From a phage, in the sequence record PZ452596.1: DNA of 64,000 nt; one strand, written 5' to 3'. Positions 29,939 through 41,512 of the stretch are shown here, piece after piece. Position 1 is the first letter of the stretch; each line of letters begins with the position of its first letter. The notes beneath the pieces were generated by a model. It was not told where the DNA came from. It did not search any database and was given only the letters and a program-made list of their open reading frames with translations. The translations under genes and the position numbers were made by a program.

Positions 29939-30152
29939 ATTTGACTTCCTCACCAGTACATAAATCGTATTCAACTAAACGAATAGGTTCATGAATGCCA
30001 TATCCCTGAACAGAAATTTCTGTCGTAGGATAAATTCCACTAATATCACCCATGTTCCACGCTTCATTAAATTGCTGTTCGCCTGAATTACTAAACCATT
30101 CTGCGAAAGCATTTAGCACATCTTTAGAACCTTCAATAATTATCTTTGCCAT
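29931..30152 (-). CDS. hypothetical protein
   Basis: 73-aa ORF. Confidence 0.45.
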   Translation of the reverse strand: MAKIIIEGSKDVLNAFAEWFSNSGEQQFNEAWNMGDISGIYPTTEISVQGYGIHEPIRLVEYDLCTGEEVKYD

Positions 30153-30514
30153 TACAGACTCTCAGTAAAGGTACGAGCGATAACGTCGCGCTGCTGTTCC
30201 GGAGTCAGAGAGTTAAAGCGAACTGCATAACCGGATACACGGATGGTCAGCTGCGGATATTTTTCCGGATGCTTAACTGCATCTTCCAGAGTTTCACGAC
30301 GCAGAACGTTAACGTTCAGATGTTGACCACCTTCAATTTTAACTGTAGGCTGTGGCTCAATTTCAATTTCACGGGCATGCAAACCGTAGAAAATTTCTGG
30401 GTCTACAAAAGAGTCCTCTTTAAAGGTTTTAGAGACAATAATTCGTGCTTGAATACCATCTTCAAAATAAATAGTGCCTTTGTGTGTGCCTTCAAGAATT
30501 TGATATGCTTTCAT
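30152..30514 (-). CDS. autonomous glycyl radical cofactor (GrcA/YfiD-like)
   Basis: 120 aa; C-terminal about 70 aa [41 protein letters not shown]... matches E. coli GrcA with glycyl-radical RVSGYAV; 3' half GC-rich. Confidence 0.85.
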
Positions 30515-30521
30515 ATAAACC

Positions 30522-30851
30522 TCAATTAGAAAATAAATTTATCCAAGATTGTTCTTTAATTAAAAATGGCTCAGAATCATATGCCATTAAACTTTGCGTA
30601 ATTAATCCTTTAAAAGGTCCATCAATAAATTCCATGGTAAAATATGGAATTTTATTCATTAGCCGTGCATTAGGAGCAGTACACAAAACTCTGCATCCTT
30701 TGAATACGCCTTTTTGTAATTTGTATTGCTTAGGATAAAATTCGCTCAAGACGTTGTTATTTGCCAAAATTTCAAAATGATTCACCAATTTATTTTTAAT
30801 AGTTTTTGGCGAAAAATAAAGATATTCGAAAAGCTGAGTGTCTGTCATCAT
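30522..30851 (-). CDS. hypothetical protein
   Basis: Start at ATGATG 30851 overlapping upstream stop. Confidence 0.45.
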
Positions 30852-31387
30852 TGCATTCCGATTACGAAAAACTGTGGACGAGTAATACCACCAATACAAC
30901 ATTTAATATTACAGCAGCAGTGTACAGTGTCAATATGGACACTATAAATCTTATCCATATCAGGAGATTTGACAGGCTCATCAATTATATACAAAATTCG
31001 CGAAAGCGATAAACCTCTGAACTTGCTTCCTTTATTACCAATAAAACTGCGCACAGAATCAGTAAATAAACGAAAACGTATATCATCATTAGAATAACGC
31101 GAAAATTCCTTTTTAATGTTATTTGCAGAAATTTTAGCGTAAGCTGAAGTATTAGAAAGAACAATAACTGTTCCGCCATCATACAACCAATTAGCAGCAA
31201 AATTAGTTACTGCAGTTGATTTACCGGATTGACGTCCACCATCTAGTCGAAGTGTGCAGTACTGTTTAAGTAATTCTTCAAATGGCGGGATATATTCGTT
31301 TTTACAAATTTCTTCTACTCTAGCATCAGAATGGTGTGTAAAAGCATTCATCAGGGATAGATAAGGACCAGTTAAAAATGTTCTCAT
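30848..31387 (-). CDS. stand-alone P-loop ATPase with terminase-like Walker motifs
   Basis: 179 aa from ATG 31387 behind GAGAGAATAAA; Walker A LDGGRQSGKST and Walker B ILYIIDEP resemble gp17 LSRQLGKTT / MIYIDEC in this window. Confidence 0.5.
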   Translation of the reverse strand: MRTFLTGPYLSLMNAFTHHSDARVEEICKNEYIPPFEELLKQYCTLRLDGGRQSGKSTAVTNFAANWLYDGGTVIVLSNTSAYAKISANNIKKEFSRYSNDDIRFRLFTDSVRSFIGNKGSKFRGLSLSRILYIIDEPVKSPDMDKIYSVHIDTVHCCCNIKCCIGGITRPQFFVIGMQ

Positions 31388-31527
31388 TTTATTCTCTCTA
31401 AATTTGGGCCATTCCATGGCGCATGAATTGTCCATTTCTGTATTTATCCATTACCGCACTCAGGCTCGACCTTATTACAGGTTGGCGGAATCCCTCATAG
31501 AATCATGAGGTCCAGGTTGTTCCCATA

Positions 31528-32001
31528 TTATTTGAACGATTTAACGTACTGAATAGAACCTTTACTATTCACAAAGGCAATTTTACCATTTTTGTTATAC
31601 ATGGTAGCAGTACGTTGATAGCCATAAGTTTGTTTACCAGATTGATAACCAACTAATGCAAAATTATCTTCACCCATTTTATTCTGTTTAGCGCGAATAC
31701 GTTCATGACCATGTGCCATAAGAACCTTAGCATCACCAGTTGCAATGGATCGACGAGTTTTTTCATCTTCAACTGTATTAACAAAGTCGTCAAATGAATC
31801 AAATTTAGCATGAGATTTATTATATAGTTTTCCATCTACTGCATAATTATATCCTTGTACATCCATCTCAACTTCTGTACCATCATCCAGTACAGCAGTG
31901 ATTTTCTGTCCTTTTTTAAATTTCAAAAGATCAGTAAAAGATTCAGCAATAATTTGAGAACTAATAGCTGCTTCAGTAATAAATTCTTGATATGTTTTCA
32001 T
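31528..32001 (-). CDS. internal protein (IPIII/IPII-like) with capsid targeting sequence
   Basis: 157 aa; N-terminus MKTYQEFITEA is the T4 internal-protein CTS with a gp21-type LxE cleavage context. Confidence 0.65.
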   Translation of the reverse strand: MKTYQEFITEAAISSQIIAESFTDLLKFKKGQKITAVLDDGTEVEMDVQGYNYAVDGKLYNKSHAKFDSFDDFVNTVEDEKTRRSIATGDAKVLMAHGHERIRAKQNKMGEDNFALVGYQSGKQTYGYQRTATMYNKNGKIAFVNSKGSIQYVKSFK

Positions 32002-32061
32002 GTGTATCCTTTAAATGTAAATATTTTAATTAATAATTTATCTCTTCAAGTAACTGTGAAT

Positions 32062-32091
32062 ATACTATCACAATTCTAGGAGAAAGTAAAT
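32062..32091 (-). promoter_or_regulatory. early promoter upstream of internal protein gene
   Basis: Minus strand ATTTAC, 18 nt, TGATAGTAT. Confidence 0.45.
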
Positions 32092-32095
32092 AACT

Positions 32096-33064
<969 letters not shown>

Positions 33065-33083
<19 letters not shown>

Positions 33084-33553
33084 TCAGTGATAAAGTTATT
33101 TAAATTTTGAGTATATTTCTTTTCATCAAAAATCTTTTGCTGTCTGCGTAACCGCCATGGCATTTCAATGAACGCGCACCATATCCCAGATAATATTGCT
33201 GCTGTCAAAATATTAACAAGCATAATTAAAAGAATCCAATCTCCTATTCTGTCTATTGGATTTTTTATAAAAAAGTAAAATACGAATGATGTCACAGGAA
33301 GACTAATAATATACCACAGAATCATAATTTTATCTGTGAACCAATCAGCGTTCGTTAACTTAGCGCGACCATTATGAATACACACGAATTTATCATCTGT
33401 TATAATAGATGGCTTAGCTGCTTGATATCCCATTCTAAACTCCCTAATCAACAAATTTTTCATATCTTCGGAACAACCATTCCAGTCAACTCTATCAACT
33501 GAAATGCCATCATCCCCATCATCTAAATCATACCAGCGAGTTTTTAAAATCAT
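33065..33553 (-). CDS. membrane protein, family with conserved C-terminal motif
   Basis: 162 aa; two hydrophobic helices; ends NNFITECRKLK. Confidence 0.5.
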
Positions 33554-33912
33554 TTAATTTTCCTACAATCACTCACAAACTCTTCCATTGATTCTTTTTC
33601 AATATAAGACATGTAGCTATTATATTCTTTTAATTGTATTTTGTAATCTTTTTTTCTTTGCCAATTTATTTTAAAATTATCATAATGAAAATATAACATG
33701 GTACCAAAGAATGAAAATAATGAAATAATTTTAGTATAGTGAAGTTCACTCCAAACTTCTATTATATTTACTGTGCCGTCAATGTTTAAAATAAGACAGT
33801 CAATTAACAATCCAAAAAGACTACCCGCAAGAGCTGCAGCCAACGCCACAGCAAAAATTAAAAATGACTCAGGAAGCGAATATTTGACTTTATTTAGTTT
33901 TGGCTTTTGCAT
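33550..33912 (-). CDS. membrane protein, family with conserved C-terminal motif
   Basis: 120 aa; hydrophobic helices; ends EEFVSDCRKIK. Confidence 0.5.
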   Translation of the reverse strand: MQKPKLNKVKYSLPESFLIFAVALAAALAGSLFGLLIDCLILNIDGTVNIIEVWSELHYTKIISLFSFFGTMLYFHYDNFKINWQRKKDYKIQLKEYNSYMSYIEKESMEEFVSDCRKIK

Positions 33913-34286
33913 CGTGATTCCTTAACAAATTTCATAATTTCATCAAATTCATACGCAGCAAGTTTAAGCTGATGTTCCTTTTTAATCTTTTTACACTGTG
34001 CTTTCCAATCACGTACGCGTTTACGATAATGCCTTCCTTGATACCAGTATCCTACCCAATTTACAGGTACTAATAAAAATGGAACTATCATTGGAAGAAT
34101 TAGTGTTGACGCAAATATTATATTAGATTCAATATTAGTCATAACATCTATAACTATTCCAACCCCCAGTAGAATTACAAATGATACAGCTATTACAGGA
34201 CCTATTAATACATCAGTAGAAATTATCTGACGCTTTAATTCATACTTTAAGGGTTTACTTGGAAGATACATTGATGGCTTTGACAT
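33894..34286 (-). CDS. membrane protein, family with conserved C-terminal motif
   Basis: 130 aa; hydrophobic helices; ends MKFVKESRCKSQN. Confidence 0.5.
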   Translation of the reverse strand: MSKPSMYLPSKPLKYELKRQIISTDVLIGPVIAVSFVILLGVGIVIDVMTNIESNIIFASTLILPMIVPFLLVPVNWVGYWYQGRHYRKRVRDWKAQCKKIKKEHQLKLAAYEFDEIMKFVKESRCKSQN

Positions 34287-34863
34287 ATTCTCTGCATTCC
34301 TTCACAAATTTTTCTAGTAATAAATCGCTTTCAAAATTGGGATTTTCTACGAATTTATCAAAAAGATCATCAACAATAGTTAAGATATTCTTTTTACTAA
34401 GAATACGTTTATTTTCATGCTTCGTTTCAGAATCAACTATAAGAGTAAAGAAATATTTCTTTCCCTGAAATTTTACCGTAGTATCAATATAGAATAAATT
34501 TGACTTTTGTAAGTTACGTTTAAACCATGCGTCACTTAAACTATAAACGCCAAGATAATCATAATCGTCGTTTAAATAACAAACTGTCCATTCAGGAGAA
34601 ATGAAATCAGTAAATTCAACATCAAAATCACATGTTAATAAATGAATTGATTCAATACTGTTAATAAGTATTCCAGGACGTATTAAAGACTTTTTACCTC
34701 TAGAAAATCTTCCAGAAAGACTTTCATCAGTTTCATATGAAGAACCCCAATAATAATTACGCCCTTCTGCCATACGTTTAAGAGCATTTAATAATTGGTC
34801 TGGAACATCAACCTGTCTTTGGAACTCTTCAAACATTGAATTGAAATCACTTTGCATTTTCAT
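34255..34863 (-). CDS. hypothetical soluble protein with the same C-terminal motif
   Basis: 202 aa; C-terminus EKFVKECREYVKAIN. Confidence 0.5.
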   Translation of the reverse strand: MKMQSDFNSMFEEFQRQVDVPDQLLNALKRMAEGRNYYWGSSYETDESLSGRFSRGKKSLIRPGILINSIESIHLLTCDFDVEFTDFISPEWTVCYLNDDYDYLGVYSLSDAWFKRNLQKSNLFYIDTTVKFQGKKYFFTLIVDSETKHENKRILSKKNILTIVDDLFDKFVENPNFESDLLLEKFVKECREYVKAINVSSK

Positions 34864-34884
34864 TCCTACTTACTCCAAGTAATA

Positions 34885-34898
34885 GGGGCCGAAGCCCC
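34885..34898 (-). terminator. hairpin GGGGCCGAAGCCCC
   Basis: 5-bp GC stem with 4-nt loop then T-rich tract, 3' of the 34905 gene. Confidence 0.45.
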
Positions 34899-34904
34899 TT
34901 ATCA

Positions 34905-35498
34905 TTATTTCAGAGAATTAATATATTCCTGAACATCGGCAGAGGTAGTTTCAACCCCAGAAATATTACCATTAAAGGTTTCAACTCGAGCAAGAGTATC
35001 TTCAATATCAACCTTAGTCAGTGCTGCAATTTCAACTACATCATCAGCAGTACTAATTCCGAGAGCATTTGCTGCGCGAGTTTCACGGATATATTCCAAT
35101 TTAACTGCAAGTTCTTGACGAGCATCATCTAACTCAACTACTTTCTTGGCGATTTCAATTCGCATTTCAGCATACCCATCAGCTTTAGTAGTCAACTGCT
35201 CAGCTGTTCGACGATATAGCAAACCGAGCTTAGCGTGCATTGTTACATCTTGACCTTCAGAAAGGAGCTTGCGAATTTCGCGCTCTTTTGATTCGGCTTG
35301 TCGATTCTTTTCAATAACAAGTTCACGAATACGTTTTTCTTCATTAATAGATTTAACAGAAGCAGTTTTTAGGTCTTTAATTTTATCAAGTAATTTTGCT
35401 GCTGCAGCAGTGTACTGTTCTTCAACAGATAGATTTTTAGCCATAGCAGAACCAAGTTTAGTGCGAATAAACTCAACAATTTTCTTCAGCATGTTCAT
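34905..35498 (-). CDS. coiled-coil protein, PspA/IM30-like (tentative)
   Basis: 197 aa; heptad-rich helical sequence with DTLAR segment; resemblance to PspA family is by eye only. Confidence 0.4.
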
Positions 35499-35542
35499 AG
35501 CATTTCCTTTAGTTAATTAAGGGTTTTATAATCCGTGGGAGT

Positions 35543-35572
35543 ATTATACTCTACTCCCAAGAGTTTGTAAAC
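35543..35572 (-). promoter_or_regulatory. early promoter
   Basis: Minus strand GTTTAC, 18 nt, GAGTATAAT; -10 lies within palindrome GGGAGTA...TACTCCC. Confidence 0.55.
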
Positions 35573-35905
35573 TTATTCTTCGTCCAATTCATCAATAAAT
35601 TTATCGATACTACTAATAATAGACTCATCGATAATTAACAAAGCATCATCATCCATAATATTAATATTTTCTAAAGCATCAATATAAGCTTGATTGACTA
35701 TAGACCATGCCCTTTGAAAATATGGGGCTTCATCATCAGGACAAATATCCCGCACGCCTTCAAAGATACGTTTGGCATAATCTAACACCCATTGTACAGG
35801 CATGTTTTGAGAACGTTCGTTAAACTCTTTAAAGTCCTTAGATTCAAAAAGCTCTTCAGGATAATAATTTCTATTACAAAAAGCTTTACTAAAGTTACGT
35901 TTCAT
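35573..35905 (-). CDS. acidic hypothetical protein
   Basis: 110 aa with acidic C-terminal tail. Confidence 0.5.
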   Translation of the reverse strand: MKRNFSKAFCNRNYYPEELFESKDFKEFNERSQNMPVQWVLDYAKRIFEGVRDICPDDEAPYFQRAWSIVNQAYIDALENINIMDDDALLIIDESIISSIDKFIDELDEE

Positions 35906-35930
35906 AATGTTCTCCTCAAAGTTATAGGCT

Positions 35931-35961
35931 CATAATATCTCAATCATGAGCCTGTGTAAAC
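35931..35961 (-). promoter_or_regulatory. early promoter
   Basis: Minus strand GTTTAC, 19 nt, TATTAT inside palindrome GGCTCATGA...TATGAGCC. Confidence 0.5.
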
Positions 35962-36225
35962 TTATTTCATATTATTGAAATATTCTTCAGCAATTTCATC
36001 ATTATCATGATAAACTTTAGAAGACAGTTTAACATAACCTTCTGCTGCGAACATGTTAATCACAACCTTTACAGTATACCACTGACCGTCTTCATTACCC
36101 ATTACTGCATAGGTTTCAAACATCGGATGATCAGGACCGATAACTTTAATATCATTCACTGTACGACCAAAATCTTCTGAAACACATTTCATAAAGAAGT
36201 TGAACAGTTCGCCGTAATTATCCAT
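35962..36225 (-). CDS. hypothetical protein
   Basis: Start at ATG 36225 behind GGAG RBS (MDNYGELFNFFMK...); track ORF start lies inside the promoter. Confidence 0.45.
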   Translation of the reverse strand: MDNYGELFNFFMKCVSEDFGRTVNDIKVIGPDHPMFETYAVMGNEDGQWYTVKVVINMFAAEGYVKLSSKVYHDNDEIAEEYFNNMK

Positions 36226-36268
36226 TTCATTCTCCAAGTTGTTTTCTATATCAGTAGTTGATATTGAT

Positions 36269-36298
36269 ATAGTACCATGGAAGGACAAGGATGTAAAC
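36269..36298 (-). promoter_or_regulatory. early promoter
   Basis: Minus strand TTTTCACAAAACG-GTTTAC, 18 nt, TGGTACTAT. Confidence 0.55.
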
Positions 36299-36427
36299 CG
36301 TTTTGTGAAAAAATTTTTAAAAAGTTTTGGGGAATTCTAGGGCAGGGAGAGGAAATTAAAAGGTAGGATAATATATTATAAAGGGTATAAACTAAATGAT
36401 GCCTAGAGAGGCCCGGAAAGGCCTAGA

Positions 36428-36462
36428 TACCAAAAAGCCCCAACCTTTCGGCTAGGGCTAAG
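36428..36462 (-). repeat. 35-bp direct repeat copy A containing terminator hairpin
   Basis: TACCAAAAAGCCCCAACCTTTCGGCTAGGGCTAAG; differs from copy B at one stem position. Confidence 0.7.
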
Positions 36463-36466
36463 AATG

Positions 36467-36928
36467 TTATTTGATTTGTTTAGCAGACCAAATGCGGTCT
36501 TTGATGATTTTTTGGAGGTCTTCAACATACTCTAGGTCATGAGCATGTGGATTATCTTTGAAACTATGAGCTCGCGCAAGTTTCTGGCCTTCGGTCTTAA
36601 TTATCAAAAGTTCTTTAAGAATTGCTTCATACCTAGAGATAATTCCTTTAGCAATATTTTTTTCTTGTGCTGCTTTAGGGTCAGCCTTAGGAGCAGGTTT
36701 ACCAGAAGGTTTTTCGAAAGCCGCGCCAGTAGCAACCAGGCTTTTCCAGGCGGTGGTAACATAGTTACCCACAAAGCCTTCAGCTCTCATATCGTCGTAG
36801 AACTTGTACCGAGATTCGTCAGAAGCATCTTTATAAGAATATTTACCAGCTTTAATAGCAGCAGTTGCTACAGCGCGAACATCTGAAGCGGATGCTTCGG
36901 TCATTAAAAATTGAGCATAAGTTTTCAT
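36467..36928 (-). CDS. internal-protein-like gene with capsid targeting sequence, flanked by direct repeats
   Basis: 153 aa; N-terminus MKTYAQFLMTEA fits the internal-protein CTS; Ala/Lys/Pro-rich middle; sits between repeats A and B. Confidence 0.55.
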   Translation of the reverse strand: MKTYAQFLMTEASASDVRAVATAAIKAGKYSYKDASDESRYKFYDDMRAEGFVGNYVTTAWKSLVATGAAFEKPSGKPAPKADPKAAQEKNIAKGIISRYEAILKELLIIKTEGQKLARAHSFKDNPHAHDLEYVEDLQKIIKDRIWSAKQIK

Positions 36929-36962
36929 TGTTATTTCCTGTGTTAATTAACTCATCTATTTA

Positions 36963-36997
36963 TACCAAAAAGCCCCAACCTTTCGGCTGGGGCTAAG
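36963..36997 (-). repeat. 35-bp direct repeat copy B; rho-independent terminator of the tRNA/small-RNA transcript
   Basis: Minus strand AGCCCCAGCC-GAAA-GGTTGGGGCT followed by TTTTT. Confidence 0.7.
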
Positions 36998-37021
36998 CCT
37001 TGCGGCAACCTTGTCGGGGTT

Positions 37022-37310
37022 CCACCTGCTAAGGCAAGTGTTTGTACGAAACGCCGGGATTCGAACCCGGTTATTAAGCAGTTGACGCTACTCAATATTT
37101 TTAAAAGGCCATATCTCGACCATATCCGAACGTTCCGTCAAAAACGCTACTCGGCTTACGGCAAAGATATTTCCTCGAATCGATAATTCGGTGCGCCGTT
37201 TCTGCTGTGATATAAGAGGACATTAACAAAACATAAAGATTTATTAATGCCAGTCCTTAAACAGGGAACATCAGTCCGACGACTTGCCGGTAGCGACCCG
37301 GCTTCTTGTC
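37022..37310 (-). ncRNA. small stable RNA region (T4 species 1/2-like, tentative)
   Basis: About 290 nt with no ORF between tRNA-Arg and the terminator; has a tRNA-like T-arm (CCGGGTTCGAATCCCGG) and repeated GAGTAGCGT boxes; boundaries not resolved. Confidence 0.35.
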
Positions 37311-37386
37311 TGGTCGAGGCAGTAGGGATCGAACCTACGACCCAGGACTTAGAAGGTCCTTGCTCTTCCTTCTGAGCTATGCCTCG
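37311..37386 (-). tRNA. tRNA-Arg (anticodon UCU)
   Basis: Hand fold: acceptor CGAGGCA/TGCCTCG, anticodon loop CTTCTAA, T-arm GTAGGTTCGATCCCTAC, encoded CCA. Confidence 0.85.
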
Positions 37387-37390
37387 GATT

Positions 37391-37465
37391 TGGCGGACGT
37401 GATAGGATTCGAACCTATAACCAATCGCTTAACAGGCGATCGCTCTGCCATTGAGCTACACATCC
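37391..37465 (-). tRNA. tRNA-Asn (anticodon GUU)
   Basis: Hand fold: acceptor GGATGTG/CACGTCC, anticodon stem ATCGC/GCGAT with loop CTGTTAA, T-arm ATAGGTTCGAATCCTAT, CCA. Confidence 0.8.
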
Positions 37466-37469
37466 AAAT

Positions 37470-37556
37470 TGGTGGGGAGTGATGGAGTCGAACCACCCGA
37501 GTCGCAATGACAATGGATTTACAGTCCACACCGCTACCTCTACGGGATAACTCCCC
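37470..37556 (-). tRNA. tRNA-Tyr (anticodon GUA), long variable arm
   Basis: Hand fold: acceptor GGGGAGT/ACTCCCC, anticodon loop CTGTAAA, variable arm GTCATTGCGACTCG, T-arm GGTGGTTCGACTCCATC, CCA. Confidence 0.8.
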
Positions 37557-37565
37557 TAATTAATT

Positions 37566-37640
37566 TGGTGGCCCTGGGTGGAATTGAACCACCATCTGGC
37601 GATTATGAGTCGCTTGCTTGAACCTTCCAGCTACAGGGCC
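37566..37640 (-). tRNA. tRNA-Ile (anticodon CAU, lysidine-type reading AUA)
   Basis: Acceptor GGCCCTG/CAGGGCC; anticodon stem-loop GCGACTCATAATCGC as in E. coli tRNA-Ile2; T-arm GGTGGTTCAATTCCACC; CCA. Confidence 0.8.
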
Positions 37641-37641
37641 T

Positions 37642-37717
37642 TGGTGCTGATTGACGGAATCGAACCGCCGACCTTCTCATTACAAGTGAGTTGCTCTACC
37701 TACTGAGCTAAATCAGC
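37642..37717 (-). tRNA. tRNA-Thr (anticodon UGU)
   Basis: Acceptor GCTGATT/AATCAGC; anticodon loop CTTGTAA; T-arm GGCGGTTCGATTCCGTC; CCA. Confidence 0.85.
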
Positions 37718-37722
37718 AAAAC

Positions 37723-37812
37723 TGGCGGAGGCGATAGGATTTGAACCTATGAGTCGCCGGAGCGACTGCCGGTTTTCAAGACCGGTGCATTAAACCACTC
37801 TGCCACGCCTCC
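37723..37812 (-). tRNA. tRNA-Ser (anticodon UGA), long variable arm
   Basis: Acceptor GGAGGCG/CGCCTCC; anticodon stem CCGGT/ACCGG with loop CTTGAAA; T-arm ATAGGTTCAAATCCTAT; CCA. Confidence 0.85.
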
Positions 37813-37814
37813 AG

Positions 37815-37888
37815 TCTCCATACAAGGATTTGAACCTTGGACCTCCTGATCCCAAATCAGGCGCTCTACCAAACTGAGCTACACGGAG
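37815..37888 (-). tRNA. tRNA-Pro (anticodon UGG), no encoded CCA
   Basis: Acceptor CTCCGTG/TATGGAG (two G-U pairs); anticodon stem CCTGA/TCAGG with loop TTTGGGA; T-arm CAAGGTTCAAATCCTTG. Confidence 0.8.
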
Positions 37889-37898
37889 TAAATTAAAT

Positions 37899-37972
<74 letters not shown>

Positions 37973-37977
37973 AAATT

Positions 37978-38064
37978 TGGTGCGAGAAGTGGGACTCGAA
38001 CCCACAAGGAAATCATTCCGCAGCATTTTAAGTGCTGTGCCTTTACCAATTTGACCATTCTCGC
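37978..38064 (-). tRNA. tRNA-Leu (anticodon UAA), long variable arm
   Basis: Acceptor GCGAGAA/TTCTCGC; anticodon stem CAGCA/TGCTG with loop CTTAAAA; T-arm GGGTTCGAGTCCC; CCA. Confidence 0.85.
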
Positions 38065-38065
38065 G

Positions 38066-38138
38066 CTGGGAATAAAGGACTCGAACCTTTGCATCTAGCA
38101 GTCAAAGTGCTATGCCTTACCAACTTGGCTAATTCCCA
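38066..38138 (-). tRNA. tRNA-Gln (anticodon UUG), no encoded CCA
   Basis: Acceptor TGGGAAT/ATTCCCA; anticodon stem TAGCA/TGCTA with loop CTTTGAC; T-arm AAAGGTTCGAGTCCTTT; 1 nt from tRNA-Leu. Confidence 0.85.
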
Positions 38139-38224
38139 ATTATTAACAAAGGCTCTCTAACAAGAACCCTTGATGATAGAGGGTATTAATCAGTGCGGTA
38201 TGAGTTAATAATAACAAATATTTC

Positions 38225-38740
38225 TTAAAGCAAATCAACCATTTTAACAGTCGGCAAAACAATTTCTTCTTCGATATAAGCAAATTCTACATGTTCAACT
38301 ACACGCAAGAAATCATATTCATAGTATTCAGAAGCATGACCAAGAATATCAATGAGGCCTTCAGATATCTTATTACCATTCACAAAGAATAAATCAAATA
38401 CACGTTCTTCATCTTCTTCGGATTTATTACCAAGGTCAACTTCTATATCAAAGACCTTTTTAATGAATTCTGGATAAAGTTGGTCTGAGAACAGTCCTTC
38501 AACCAAATATTCATATATAAAAAGCTCTTGCTCGCTGAACAACCCATTACCACAATAACGGTCAGCTTTAGTACTAGAATGACGACTCTTAAACTTCTTC
38601 AAAAGATATTTAAATTGTTGGAGCTCATGCTCTTCTACGCCAAACAGTGTTTTGGTTTTATAGTTATCACCATCATTTTCCCAGGTAGTGACATCAATTA
38701 CGTAACCCTTAGGAATTGTGCTGCCTAAACGAATATACAT
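38225..38740 (-). CDS. hypothetical protein
   Basis: 171-aa acidic ORF upstream of tRNA cluster. Confidence 0.5.
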   Translation of the reverse strand: MYIRLGSTIPKGYVIDVTTWENDGDNYKTKTLFGVEEHELQQFKYLLKKFKSRHSSTKADRYCGNGLFSEQELFIYEYLVEGLFSDQLYPEFIKKVFDIEVDLGNKSEEDEERVFDLFFVNGNKISEGLIDILGHASEYYEYDFLRVVEHVEFAYIEEEIVLPTVKMVDLL

Positions 38741-39030
38741 TTGTTCACCATATTAATGTAAGTATATTTAATACATTCAAGACCCAAAGGATTCTTGAAA
38801 ATATCATATTCAAGAGGACCTTTTTCTGTTTCAATAAAGAAATCAAAATTTACTGTATTAAATTTACGGTCTTCCTTCACTAATTTAACTTGAGAAGATG
38901 AACGGTCAATGTAAACCTTTTCAACTTCAAAACATGTTAAAATGCCATAATCATCAATCAAGGCTTTAGCCGCATCTTGATCATATTTATATCCATTTTC
39001 AACGGACGATACTTTCGCATAAAGAATCAT
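38725..39030 (-). CDS. hypothetical protein
   Basis: 101-aa ORF. Confidence 0.5.
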   Translation of the reverse strand: MILYAKVSSVENGYKYDQDAAKALIDDYGILTCFEVEKVYIDRSSSQVKLVKEDRKFNTVNFDFFIETEKGPLEYDIFKNPLGLECIKYTYINMVNKCIFV

Positions 39031-39032
39031 TA

Positions 39033-39422
39033 TTAGCCTTCATCAACAATAGTATGAGTATGGGCATTTACAATTTGCCACCAATCAAAGCGATTGGAAC
39101 CATACATTGGTTTGTTTTCATTTTCTTTGATAATATCACGAAGTTCATCTTCGGTAGCGGCTTTCGCGATTAAATCAGCATATCCACCACGAGGATAATA
39201 ATTATCACCTGCAAAAAGTAAAAAATTTGGTTTAATATTATTAAACTCTTCAAGAGTAATAACTGTTCCACCAGGTTGAACAATATCTACATAACTATAT
39301 CCTAATTTTTGAGCAGCATCTACTGCTTCAAGCAGGGTATCATGAGCCCATCCAATTTGGCAATCTGGCTTTTCAGATGGATTAGCTTGATAATCTGCAT
39401 ACACTTTATACATTCTATTCAC
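39033..39422 (-). CDS. hypothetical protein
   Basis: 129-aa ORF. Confidence 0.5.
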   Translation of the reverse strand: MNRMYKVYADYQANPSEKPDCQIGWAHDTLLEAVDAAQKLGYSYVDIVQPGGTVITLEEFNNIKPNFLLFAGDNYYPRGGYADLIAKAATEDELRDIIKENENKPMYGSNRFDWWQIVNAHTHTIVDEG

Positions 39423-39600
39423 CTTTAGAAATTTTATCCATAACGATAGCGATTAAACCAATTAAAAATGCTACTACAAGTGAAAAAACATTTTCTGCTG
39501 TAGTCAATAATCCGCATATAAATCCAACAAACATTGAAAAACTAAAAGCAGAAGCAGAAATTGCAATAGCAACATTTCGAATTAATTCACAACGTTTCAT
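39415..39600 (-). CDS. small membrane protein
   Basis: 61 aa, two hydrophobic segments; directly downstream of promoter 39629-39658. Confidence 0.45.
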   Translation of the reverse strand: MKRCELIRNVAIAISASAFSFSMFVGFICGLLTTAENVFSLVVAFLIGLIAIVMDKISKGE

Positions 39601-39628
39601 TTTATTCTCCTCAGTAGTTGATAGGGTA

Positions 39629-39658
39629 ATAGTATCACTACTAAAACCCTATGTAAAC
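39629..39658 (-). promoter_or_regulatory. early promoter
   Basis: Minus strand TTTCACAAAGTT-GTTTAC, 18 nt, TGATACTAT within palindrome TAGGGT...ACCCTA. Confidence 0.55.
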
Positions 39659-39677
39659 AACTTTGTGAAATTGTTTA

Positions 39678-39968
39678 TTACAAAAGATTTTTAGCAATAA
39701 TCTTGAGATGTGCTGCAGAAATGTGTTTAGCTTTAAACAACGCAGTTTCTTCAGCAGGAGAGATAACGATTGTAGCACCATCCTTTTTAGCAGACCACCC
39801 ATCACCTAAGTAAACAGTACCTTTGATTTCTTCGCCATCAACCAGACTAATCATTGGTTTACCTTCTCGTCCTTTATTTGCTTTAATAACTTCAGAAGTA
39901 AGAGTAGCTTCGGTAATGGTAGAAACCGGGGTAGTTGTAGTAGAAGTAAATTCTTTAAATGTTTTCAT
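39678..39968 (-). CDS. internal protein I-like (CTS-bearing, injected protein)
   Basis: 96 aa; N-terminus MKTFKEFTS... with ITE-A cleavage context; position upstream of 57B as for T4 ipI. Confidence 0.6.
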   Translation of the reverse strand: MKTFKEFTSTTTTPVSTITEATLTSEVIKANKGREGKPMISLVDGEEIKGTVYLGDGWSAKKDGATIVISPAEETALFKAKHISAAHLKIIAKNLL

Positions 39969-39998
39969 TTTATTTTCCTAATTAATTTTGATGAGGTA

Positions 39999-40028
39999 AT
40001 AGTATCACTACCTCATCAACGTGTAAAC
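39999..40028 (-). promoter_or_regulatory. early promoter upstream of IPI-like gene
   Basis: Minus strand GTTTAC, 18 nt, TGATACTAT inside palindrome GATGAGGTA...TACCTCATC. Confidence 0.55.
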
Positions 40029-40040
40029 AACTTTGTGAAA

Positions 40041-40737
<697 letters not shown>

Positions 40738-40738
<1 letters not shown>

Positions 40739-41463
40739 TATAGTACCTTTAGTGTATTTTTAATTTTAGAAAAAAGTTCTTCAAGAGAACCATCGTTTGT
40801 AATTACTAAATCGCCATCACGAATTGGCAATCCAGCTTCTGTAATATGTGTATCATTGGATTTTTGACCAGGACGAACTACATGAATTACTGTAGCACCC
40901 ATCGCCCTAGCCGCATCCATTTCATGATCTTGACGGGTATCAGGAACGATATAATAATCATAACCTGAGTTAAATTTATCAAGATAATCTAAAGCAAATA
41001 ATTTTACCCAGTACATGCGGTCGAAGTTATTAACAATCAAATCCGTACCTAGGGCTTGCATCAGACGACGGACTGACCATTGATCTTCAATATTATTTAT
41101 AACGTCAATAATCTTGTTAAATGCTACGGAATTAACTGATTCTTGTCCTTCGTCATCAAAAACAAACACACCCTTAATTGGGCTTTTACCGTTAAGATAG
41201 CAAAATGCTTGTTCCATAATCGTGATTACTTCTGATTTAGTCAGATTTAAATTAGTCTCACGATCATAGTCAATTCCTTCAAACTCTTTACGAGTTAAGC
41301 AAGGATAGTCAGTGTTTGCTGCAAATACTCCCCATGCATAAGCCAATGCATCCTTAATAGGACCAGCAAGTTGATATTTAACTGCAGAATAATTATTCAT
41401 GATAAAATCTGCAGTAGTATCTTTTCCACTACGCTTTACACCACTTAAAAAGATTAGTTTCAT
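40738..41463 (-). CDS. 1: deoxynucleoside monophosphate kinase
   Basis: 241 aa; P-loop LSGVKRSGKDT. Confidence 0.92.
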
Positions 41464-41512
41464 ATGTTTCTCCTCAAATTTAGTTAAGATTATAACACAT
41501 GAAACTGAAGCA

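Follow-up and report, generated by a model that had tools for sequence, protein, structure and literature searches.

The capsid targeting sequence (CTS) is a short tag that directs proteins into the phage head, from which they are injected, and the internal proteins (IPs) injected in this way act ahead of any phage gene expression. T4 IPI/IPI* is known to inhibit GmrSD, a type IV restriction enzyme, of E. coli CT596, and T4 IPII and IPIII, which are injected too, inhibit the GmrSD enzymes of ECOR21 and ECOR17, respectively. The GmrSD type IV restriction enzyme that is blocked differs between Ip1, Ip2 and Ip3 of T4, and the study that reports this, in which ip1–10 were tested, places "at least 10" IPs in "two distinct loci" (PMC12373910). 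The IP loci are described as hyperplastic by Repoila et al. 1994, as that work is summarised in PMC9026906, PMC4122927 and PMC12373910. Mutagenesis of the T4 IPIII leader assigned CTS residues 4 and 7 to targeting and residues 8 and 10 to processing (PMC9026906), and gp21 cleaves after Glu at ITE and LTE motifs (PMC5694885).

The window analysed here, a 64-kb stretch of phage DNA, is 100% identical over positions 30000–41500 to Tequatrovirus RB27 (KM607000 / NC_025448), whose record coordinates convert to window coordinates by subtraction of 30322. From vs.3 to gene 3 the window is collinear with T4, and every gene of the region lies on the minus strand. An earlier note had picked out three genes with a CTS start, and all three exist as described (Table 1), with N-termini MKTYQEFITEA... 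for ip4, MKTYAQFLMTEA... for RB27_136 and MKTFKEFTSTTTTPVSTITEA... for ipI. In a scan of all ATG-, GTG- or TTG-initiated ORFs of at least 40 aa in the six frames of the window (n = 1147), these three were the only ones to begin with MKT[YF]..F, and the looser pattern M[KR].[YF]..F added two unrelated ORFs. A four-position match in 3 of 1147 ORFs is not expected by chance, so the leader is real and specific. The CTS targeting residues are present in each product, with Tyr or Phe at position 4 and Phe at position 7, and the leaders end at ITE10 in Ip4, MTE11 in RB27_136 and ITE20 in IPI. The idea that unrelated ORFs share these N-termini by coincidence can draw on the shortness of the motif and on nothing else; set against it are the rarity of the match, the fact that all three genes lie in known variable regions, the independent identification of two of them as IP families and the conservation of the leader inside each family. 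We regard coincidence as vanishingly improbable and effectively refuted. The mature proteins are all basic (pI 9.0–9.4), and the three products have only the N-terminal CTS in common. The prohead core and protease genes 67, 68, 21, 22, 23 and 24 are annotated in the RB27 record at positions outside the window. Of these genes, ipI and ip4 were known and annotated before, and RB27_136 is the one new item. Our preferred reading is that all three CTS proteins enter the prohead, undergo trimming by gp21 and are then injected, and that RB27_136 is a previously unrecognised IP encoded at a third locus; we consider this likely.

Table 1. Coordinates of the three CTS genes and their associated elements in the 64-kb window.
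Feature	Position	Strand	Description
ip4 (RB27_126)	31528..32001	-	157-aa internal protein Ip4; leader MKTYQEFITE, then A
ip4 CTS	31972..32001	-	codons 1-10; gp21-type site I-T-E at end
Early-promoter-like element	32062..32090	-	TTTACT-N17-TAGTAT between e and ip4
Late-promoter motifs (two, tandem)	32604..32624	-	TATAAATA, exact, 13 bp apart, immediately upstream of lysozyme gene e
rnaC intrinsic terminator, downstream copy	36427..36462	-	direct-repeat copy 2, right cassette boundary
RB27_136	36467..36928	-	153-aa "hypothetical protein", no note in RB27 record
Late promoter	36957..36964	-	TATAAATA, exact T4 late consensus, 28 nt upstream of RB27_136 ATG
rnaC intrinsic terminator, upstream copy	36962..36997	-	direct-repeat copy 1, left cassette boundary
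Second early promoter	39629..39658	-	directly downstream of ipI, upstream of tRNA.4
ipI	39678..39968	-	96-aa internal protein I; annotated ipI in RB27 record
Perfect 11-nt inverted repeat	39988-39998 / 40009-40019		overlaps ipI early promoter
ipI early promoter	39999..40028	-	exact GTTTAC-N17-TACTAT, upstream of ipI

Alignment to T4 IPI, IPII and IPIII divides the three genes: the third is T4 ipI in its usual place, and the products of the other two are dissimilar from the T4 proteins beyond the leader. The proposal that the cargo set differs from that of T4 holds for those two, with ip4 replacing denV-ipII-ipIII and RB27_136 missing from T4. The third gene is thus, as judged by alignment, a plain and already known T4 ipI orthologue. 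IPI and its T4 counterpart are 99% identical and are set apart only by an additional Thr in the RB27 leader, which spans 20 residues (MKTFKEFTSTTTTPVSTITE, then A). The mature part, 76 residues that are the same as in T4 IPI*, matches the full 76-position profile of Pfam IPI_T4 (PF11634; 7.5e-54, IPI residues 21–96). As in T4, the gene adjoins 57B and lies transcriptionally downstream of it. Early promoters stand directly upstream and downstream of ipI, so that the gene is promoter-flanked on both sides. Matches to GTTTAC-N16-18-TANNAT number 13 in the window against 0.81 expected, which marks a genuine promoter class, and 13 of 13 are on the minus strand. A copy of TATAAATA inside gene 1 (41094–41101) lies upstream of 57A-57B-ipI, as a motif match alone. 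Packaging of IPI, its trimming by gp21 and its injection are established knowledge.

The first gene had been put forward as new cargo, and this claim must be dropped: by its family matches, ip4 belongs to an already known, named and widespread IP family. The RB27 record labels it "Ip4 / internal virion protein", and the product matches Pfam DUF7412 (PF24183; 9.7e-96) over its full length, residues 1–157 on profile positions 1–158, as well as phrog_3155 "internal virion protein" (1.4e-101). Ip4 is present in 471 phage records, at ≥95% identity in most of them, and goes by the alias ipIV in Yersinia phage PST. The status of Ip4 as an internal protein is accepted annotation, and we infer its packaging, cleavage and injection in RB27. 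In a comparison with T4 IPI, IPII and IPIII, similarity was found nowhere outside the CTS, and sequence and fold searches with the Ip4 cargo gave no informative relatives. When Ip4 was tried against 15 GmrSD groups, no reproducible target was found (PMC12373910). In the family alignment (A6), M1, K2, F7, E10 and E20 are invariant. A second [I/M/L]-x-E site at residues 18–20 (31942–31950), which ends at the invariant Glu20, is kept family-wide; Ip4 may undergo two processing cuts or carry an IPI-like leader of 20 residues.

The e-ip4 segment of RB27 is a classical hyperplastic IP locus in which Ip4 replaces the T4 denV-ipII-ipIII block. The gene adjoins e and is transcriptionally downstream of it; its placement before e in the earlier note is true in plus-strand coordinates only, and the remainder of that description, with one IP gene adjoining e and one beside the tRNA cluster and rnaC, stands. 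The e-proximal gene content is ipIII-ipII-denV in T4, denV-ip4 in phiD1 and ip4 alone in RB27 and T2, and searches of the whole 64 kb gave no match to denV, ipII or ipIII. The exchanged segment has sharp ends that fall at the same breakpoints, with shared sequence running into vs.8 right after the stop codon of ip4 (RB27, phiD1) or of denV (T4). By alignment, the region upstream of ip4 is homologous to the T4 e-ipIII intergenic region, promoter included. The promoter -35 reads ATTTAC in RB27 versus GTTTAC in T4, so that the GTTTAC promoter ascribed to both the first and the third gene is exact for ipI and altered for ip4. In a generic sigma-70 scan the element scored under threshold, and the inverted repeat upstream of ip4 is a weak AT-rich palindrome only. 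A terminator scan of the minus strand found no terminator-like site in the e-ip4 interval, and late read-through into ip4 from the tandem TATAAATA motifs of e is possible.

Several further features of this neighbourhood were recorded. The UV repair gene denV (endonuclease V) lies between e and ip4 in phiD1 and between vs.8 and ipII in T4. RB27 vs.8 carries a 1-nt deletion in codon 5 (31436–31500, minus strand), GGGATT-CCGCC versus GGGATTCCCGCC in T4 and phiD1, by which the ancestral start meets a stop, so that the 195-aa ORF of the annotation begins again further downstream; residues 5–35 of T4 vs.8 align to RB27 vs.8 in another frame. In the T2 record (AP018813, 4430–4903), an Ip4 gene whose product is 99% identical to RB27 Ip4 is mis-annotated "valyl tRNA synthetase modifier", and many product names of its neighbours in that record are clearly misassigned too.

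The middle gene, RB27_136, is organised differently. It lies outside both classical IP loci, between e.8 and the rnaC gene that closes the tRNA cluster. A copy of the rnaC intrinsic terminator stands on either side of it, and the two copies form a direct repeat of 36 nt, 97% identical, at a distance of 535 bp. At this site T4 has one terminator copy and no gene between, with flanks identical to those of RB27. Within the cassette, the first terminator is followed directly by TATAAATA, then by AGGAAA and the ATG of RB27_136. The window scan found no GTTTAC early promoter in the cassette, the next one (36269–36298) serving e.8, and the early-promoter and inverted-repeat flanks of classical IP genes are absent at RB27_136. 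By its motifs, the gene would thus be a self-contained, insulated unit driven by a late promoter. The hyperplastic IP-locus behaviour proposed for all three genes consequently describes the e-proximal segment well and does not extend to RB27_136, with its position outside the loci, its late-promoter cassette and its terminator bounds.

The late promoter of the middle gene was overlooked in the earlier note. The adjacent tRNA cluster of RB27 (37314–38138, minus strand) holds 10 tRNAs by Rfam, listed in the RB27 record as Arg, Asn, Tyr, Met, Thr, Ser, Pro, Gly, Leu and Gln, versus 8 tRNAs plus segB in T4; the segB homing endonuclease gene and tRNA-Ile are absent from the RB27 cluster. RB27_137 (38225–38740, minus strand), a 171-aa acidic ORF, lies between tRNA.2 and tRNA-Gln, a slot in which no T4 gene is annotated, and the counterpart slot of T2 holds an ORF of the same length that is noted as similar to the RB27 protein.

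The RB27_136 product begins with a CTS-like leader, MKTYAQFLMTE followed by A. The RB27 allele is a variant shorter by four residues, its presumed gp21 site lies at MTE11, with Met rather than Leu or Ile at P3, and the mature protein is predicted to be about 15.7 kDa with a pI of 9.4. Among protein families it matches phrog_2280, "unknown function", alone; searches of Pfam and NCBIfam gave no match. No relative outside the family was found in 5.8 billion clustered proteins, 1.84 billion representatives and the PDB sequences, no fold relative outside the family in the BFVD and PDB structures, and no sequence similarity between its mature part and those of T4 IPII and IPIII. In an AF2 model (pLDDT 77), a three-helix N-domain is joined by a Lys/Pro/Ala linker to a C-terminal helical hairpin. 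The N-domain (residues 14–67) is the most conserved part of the protein, and the linker between the two helical domains, KPSGKPAPKADPKAAQEK, is basic and Lys-rich.

The search for homologues of RB27_136 gave 512 phage records, and the family is present in about 40% of those T4-like records that match this region, therapeutic and biocontrol candidates included. In the 40 records sampled and in some 35 named cluster members, every homologue is named hypothetical or left unannotated. The gene is absent from T4, T2 and T6. Its slot after the tRNA/rnaC terminator is kept in Tequatrovirus, Mosigvirus, Jiaodavirus, Marfavirus and an unclassified Straboviridae phage. The succession of tRNA-cluster terminator, TATAAATA and CTS-ORF recurs in PP01 and phiD1 (Tequatrovirus), Mineola (Jiaodavirus) and AM_K6 (unclassified Straboviridae), and APCEc01 (Mosigvirus) and P545 (Marfavirus) have the same arrangement with a one-mismatch late promoter. 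Among six genomes, TATAAATA is exact after the terminator in four (RB27, PP01, Mineola and AM_K6) and has one mismatch in two. A further family member is found in fHe-Yen9-01 (Tegunavirus). CTS-like leaders are kept across the family while the mature parts drop to 37–47% identity: MKTYAQFLMTEA, MKSYTQFLNEAVLNEA, MKSYAEFLTEQ, MKFKEFLAEA, MLKFNEFLAEG, MLEYSEFLKELFCEA and MITFNDILAEG have in common an aromatic residue at position 4, Phe or Ile at 7 and Leu at 8, followed by x-Glu, and the presumed cleavage site of most relatives reads LNE, LTE or LAE. Each leader thus closes with a hydrophobic-x-Glu motif that resembles the ITE and LTE sites cut by gp21. In Klebsiella and Yersinia phages the C-terminal hairpin is swapped for an unrelated helical domain.

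Three predicted proteins from metagenomes and assemblies (P0009, P0010 and P0015) have the N-domain or C-terminus of the RB27_136 family fused to pieces of neighbouring genes, namely NudE-like, tRNA.3-like and e.8-like pieces. These chimeras may be natural e.1–e.8 deletion recombinants or assembly artefacts.

Virion proteomics of Yersinia phage fD1 (= phiD1, HE956711) bears on all three genes. Its homologues are g129 for Ip4, g140 for RB27_136 (79% identical) and g146 for IPI. When purified fD1 virions were analysed by LC-MS/MS, all three passed the strict threshold for virion association, and g140 is marked as lacking a T4 counterpart (PMC8309999 Table S3). In the same data set 113 of 277 gene products were called virion-associated, including denV, lysozyme e and NudE (PMC8309999), and because of this low specificity the detection of g140 is weak evidence. 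It leaves room for an account in which RB27_136 is a late cytoplasmic protein that stays unpackaged, its CTS resemblance being a relic of descent from, or recombination with, an IP gene, so that only ipI and ip4 are real IPs. Such an account would fit the lone proteomic detection, the position outside the two classical IP loci with neither early-promoter nor inverted-repeat flanks, the non-canonical MTE site of the RB27 allele and the fact that the RB27 annotators labelled Ip4 and IpI yet missed RB27_136. However, a relic should decay, and the mapped leader positions are conserved despite mature identities of 37–47%. The dedicated late promoter also suits the timing of prohead assembly, and the mature protein is basic, as IPs are. 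We therefore consider a relic unlikely. That RB27_136 is recruited, trimmed, retained and injected, as its leader, late promoter, basic pI and weak proteomic match suggest, seems reasonably probable.

These observations can be placed in a model for the three proteins. Late in infection, the leader of each would bind the gp22/gp67/gp68 scaffolding core of the prohead, and gp21 would cut after Glu, at ITE10 in Ip4 (possibly at E20 too), MTE11 in RB27_136 and ITE20 in IPI. Once trimmed, these basic proteins would be kept in the head with the DNA, would enter the host with it and would act ahead of phage gene expression. RB27_136 would be supplied from its own late promoter in the terminator-bounded 535-bp cassette at the third locus, as a protein whose conserved N-domain of three helices is joined through a Lys/Pro/Ala linker to a helical C-terminal domain that can be exchanged.

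What RB27_136 might do once packaged is a separate question. One answer is that it enters the head through its CTS and serves the virion itself, its Lys/Pro/Ala linker neutralising or organising DNA, or the protein helping ejection, with no part in anti-defence. Over five genera the gene holds one fixed position, and its conservation exceeds that of the fast-exchanged classical IPs; the basic linker between two helical domains recalls the IP lysines that contact DNA phosphates in T4 heads (PMC3012670). Yet the gene is dispensable, since T4, T2 and T6 are without it and T4 has a clean deletion between the terminator repeats, and a C-terminal domain that is swapped between lineages is more typical of host-interaction than of structural proteins. 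A virion-internal or DNA-associated role is a serious alternative, to which we assign a low probability. By analogy with Ip1–3, the cargos of Ip4 and RB27_136 probably have an anti-restriction or anti-defence role. A fuller proposal, in which the RB27_136 family (phrog_2280) constitutes a third T-even-like IP locus, an autonomous cassette whose product is injected and disarms first-line host defence, is tentative, and we hold it with less than even confidence.

If RB27_136 is packaged, its late-promoter cassette would show that CTS cargo can be recruited outside the classical IP loci, and the protein becomes a candidate new anti-defence effector and host-range determinant. The Ip1–10 catalogue appears to be without this tRNA-adjacent family, which we infer from its locus and its uniformly "hypothetical" annotation; if the proposal is true, the set tied to GmrSD inhibition would gain the RB27_136 family.

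Among known systems, the closest match is that of ipI to T4 IPI/IPI*, with the same mature 76 residues; its place after 57B and its early promoter, overlapped by an inverted repeat, are shared as well, and the T4 leader differs in lacking the extra Thr of the 20-residue RB27 leader. Modular shuffling in T4-like genomes has reportedly been attributed, by Arbiol in 2010 and Comeau in 2014, to promoter-early stem-loop (PeSL) cassettes. Like RB27_136, a PeSL cassette is a single ORF between repeated stem-loop/promoter elements that is present or absent in otherwise collinear genomes. A PeSL cassette has a sigma-70-like early promoter and stem-loop on both sides of the ORF, whereas RB27_136 has a late TATAAATA, upstream only, and its repeat element, unlike that of PeSLs, is the rnaC intrinsic terminator; we therefore do not class it as a PeSL. 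The ip4 gene is a 99%-identical member of the Ip4/IpIV family (DUF7412, phrog_3155) in the classical e-proximal locus, with a T4 ipIII-type upstream region, and in RB27 ip4 stands alone in the locus, with denV, ipII and ipIII absent, and has ATTTAC as its -35. Ip4/IpIV is one of the ~10 internal proteins of T-even phages according to Repoila et al. 1994, as cited in PMC12373910. To the classical e-proximal and 57B-proximal loci, as far as the summaries of Repoila 1994 describe them, ipI fits, ip4 largely fits and RB27_136 does not. T4 IPII and IPIII have mature parts dissimilar to that of RB27_136, which lies instead between e.8 and rnaC, and they are served by an early promoter with inverted repeat, whereas RB27_136 has a late promoter only, with terminator direct repeats. 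With their MKTYQEFIAEA type of leader and their packaged, processed and basic products, T4 IPII and IPIII are nonetheless our working model for the RB27_136 family.
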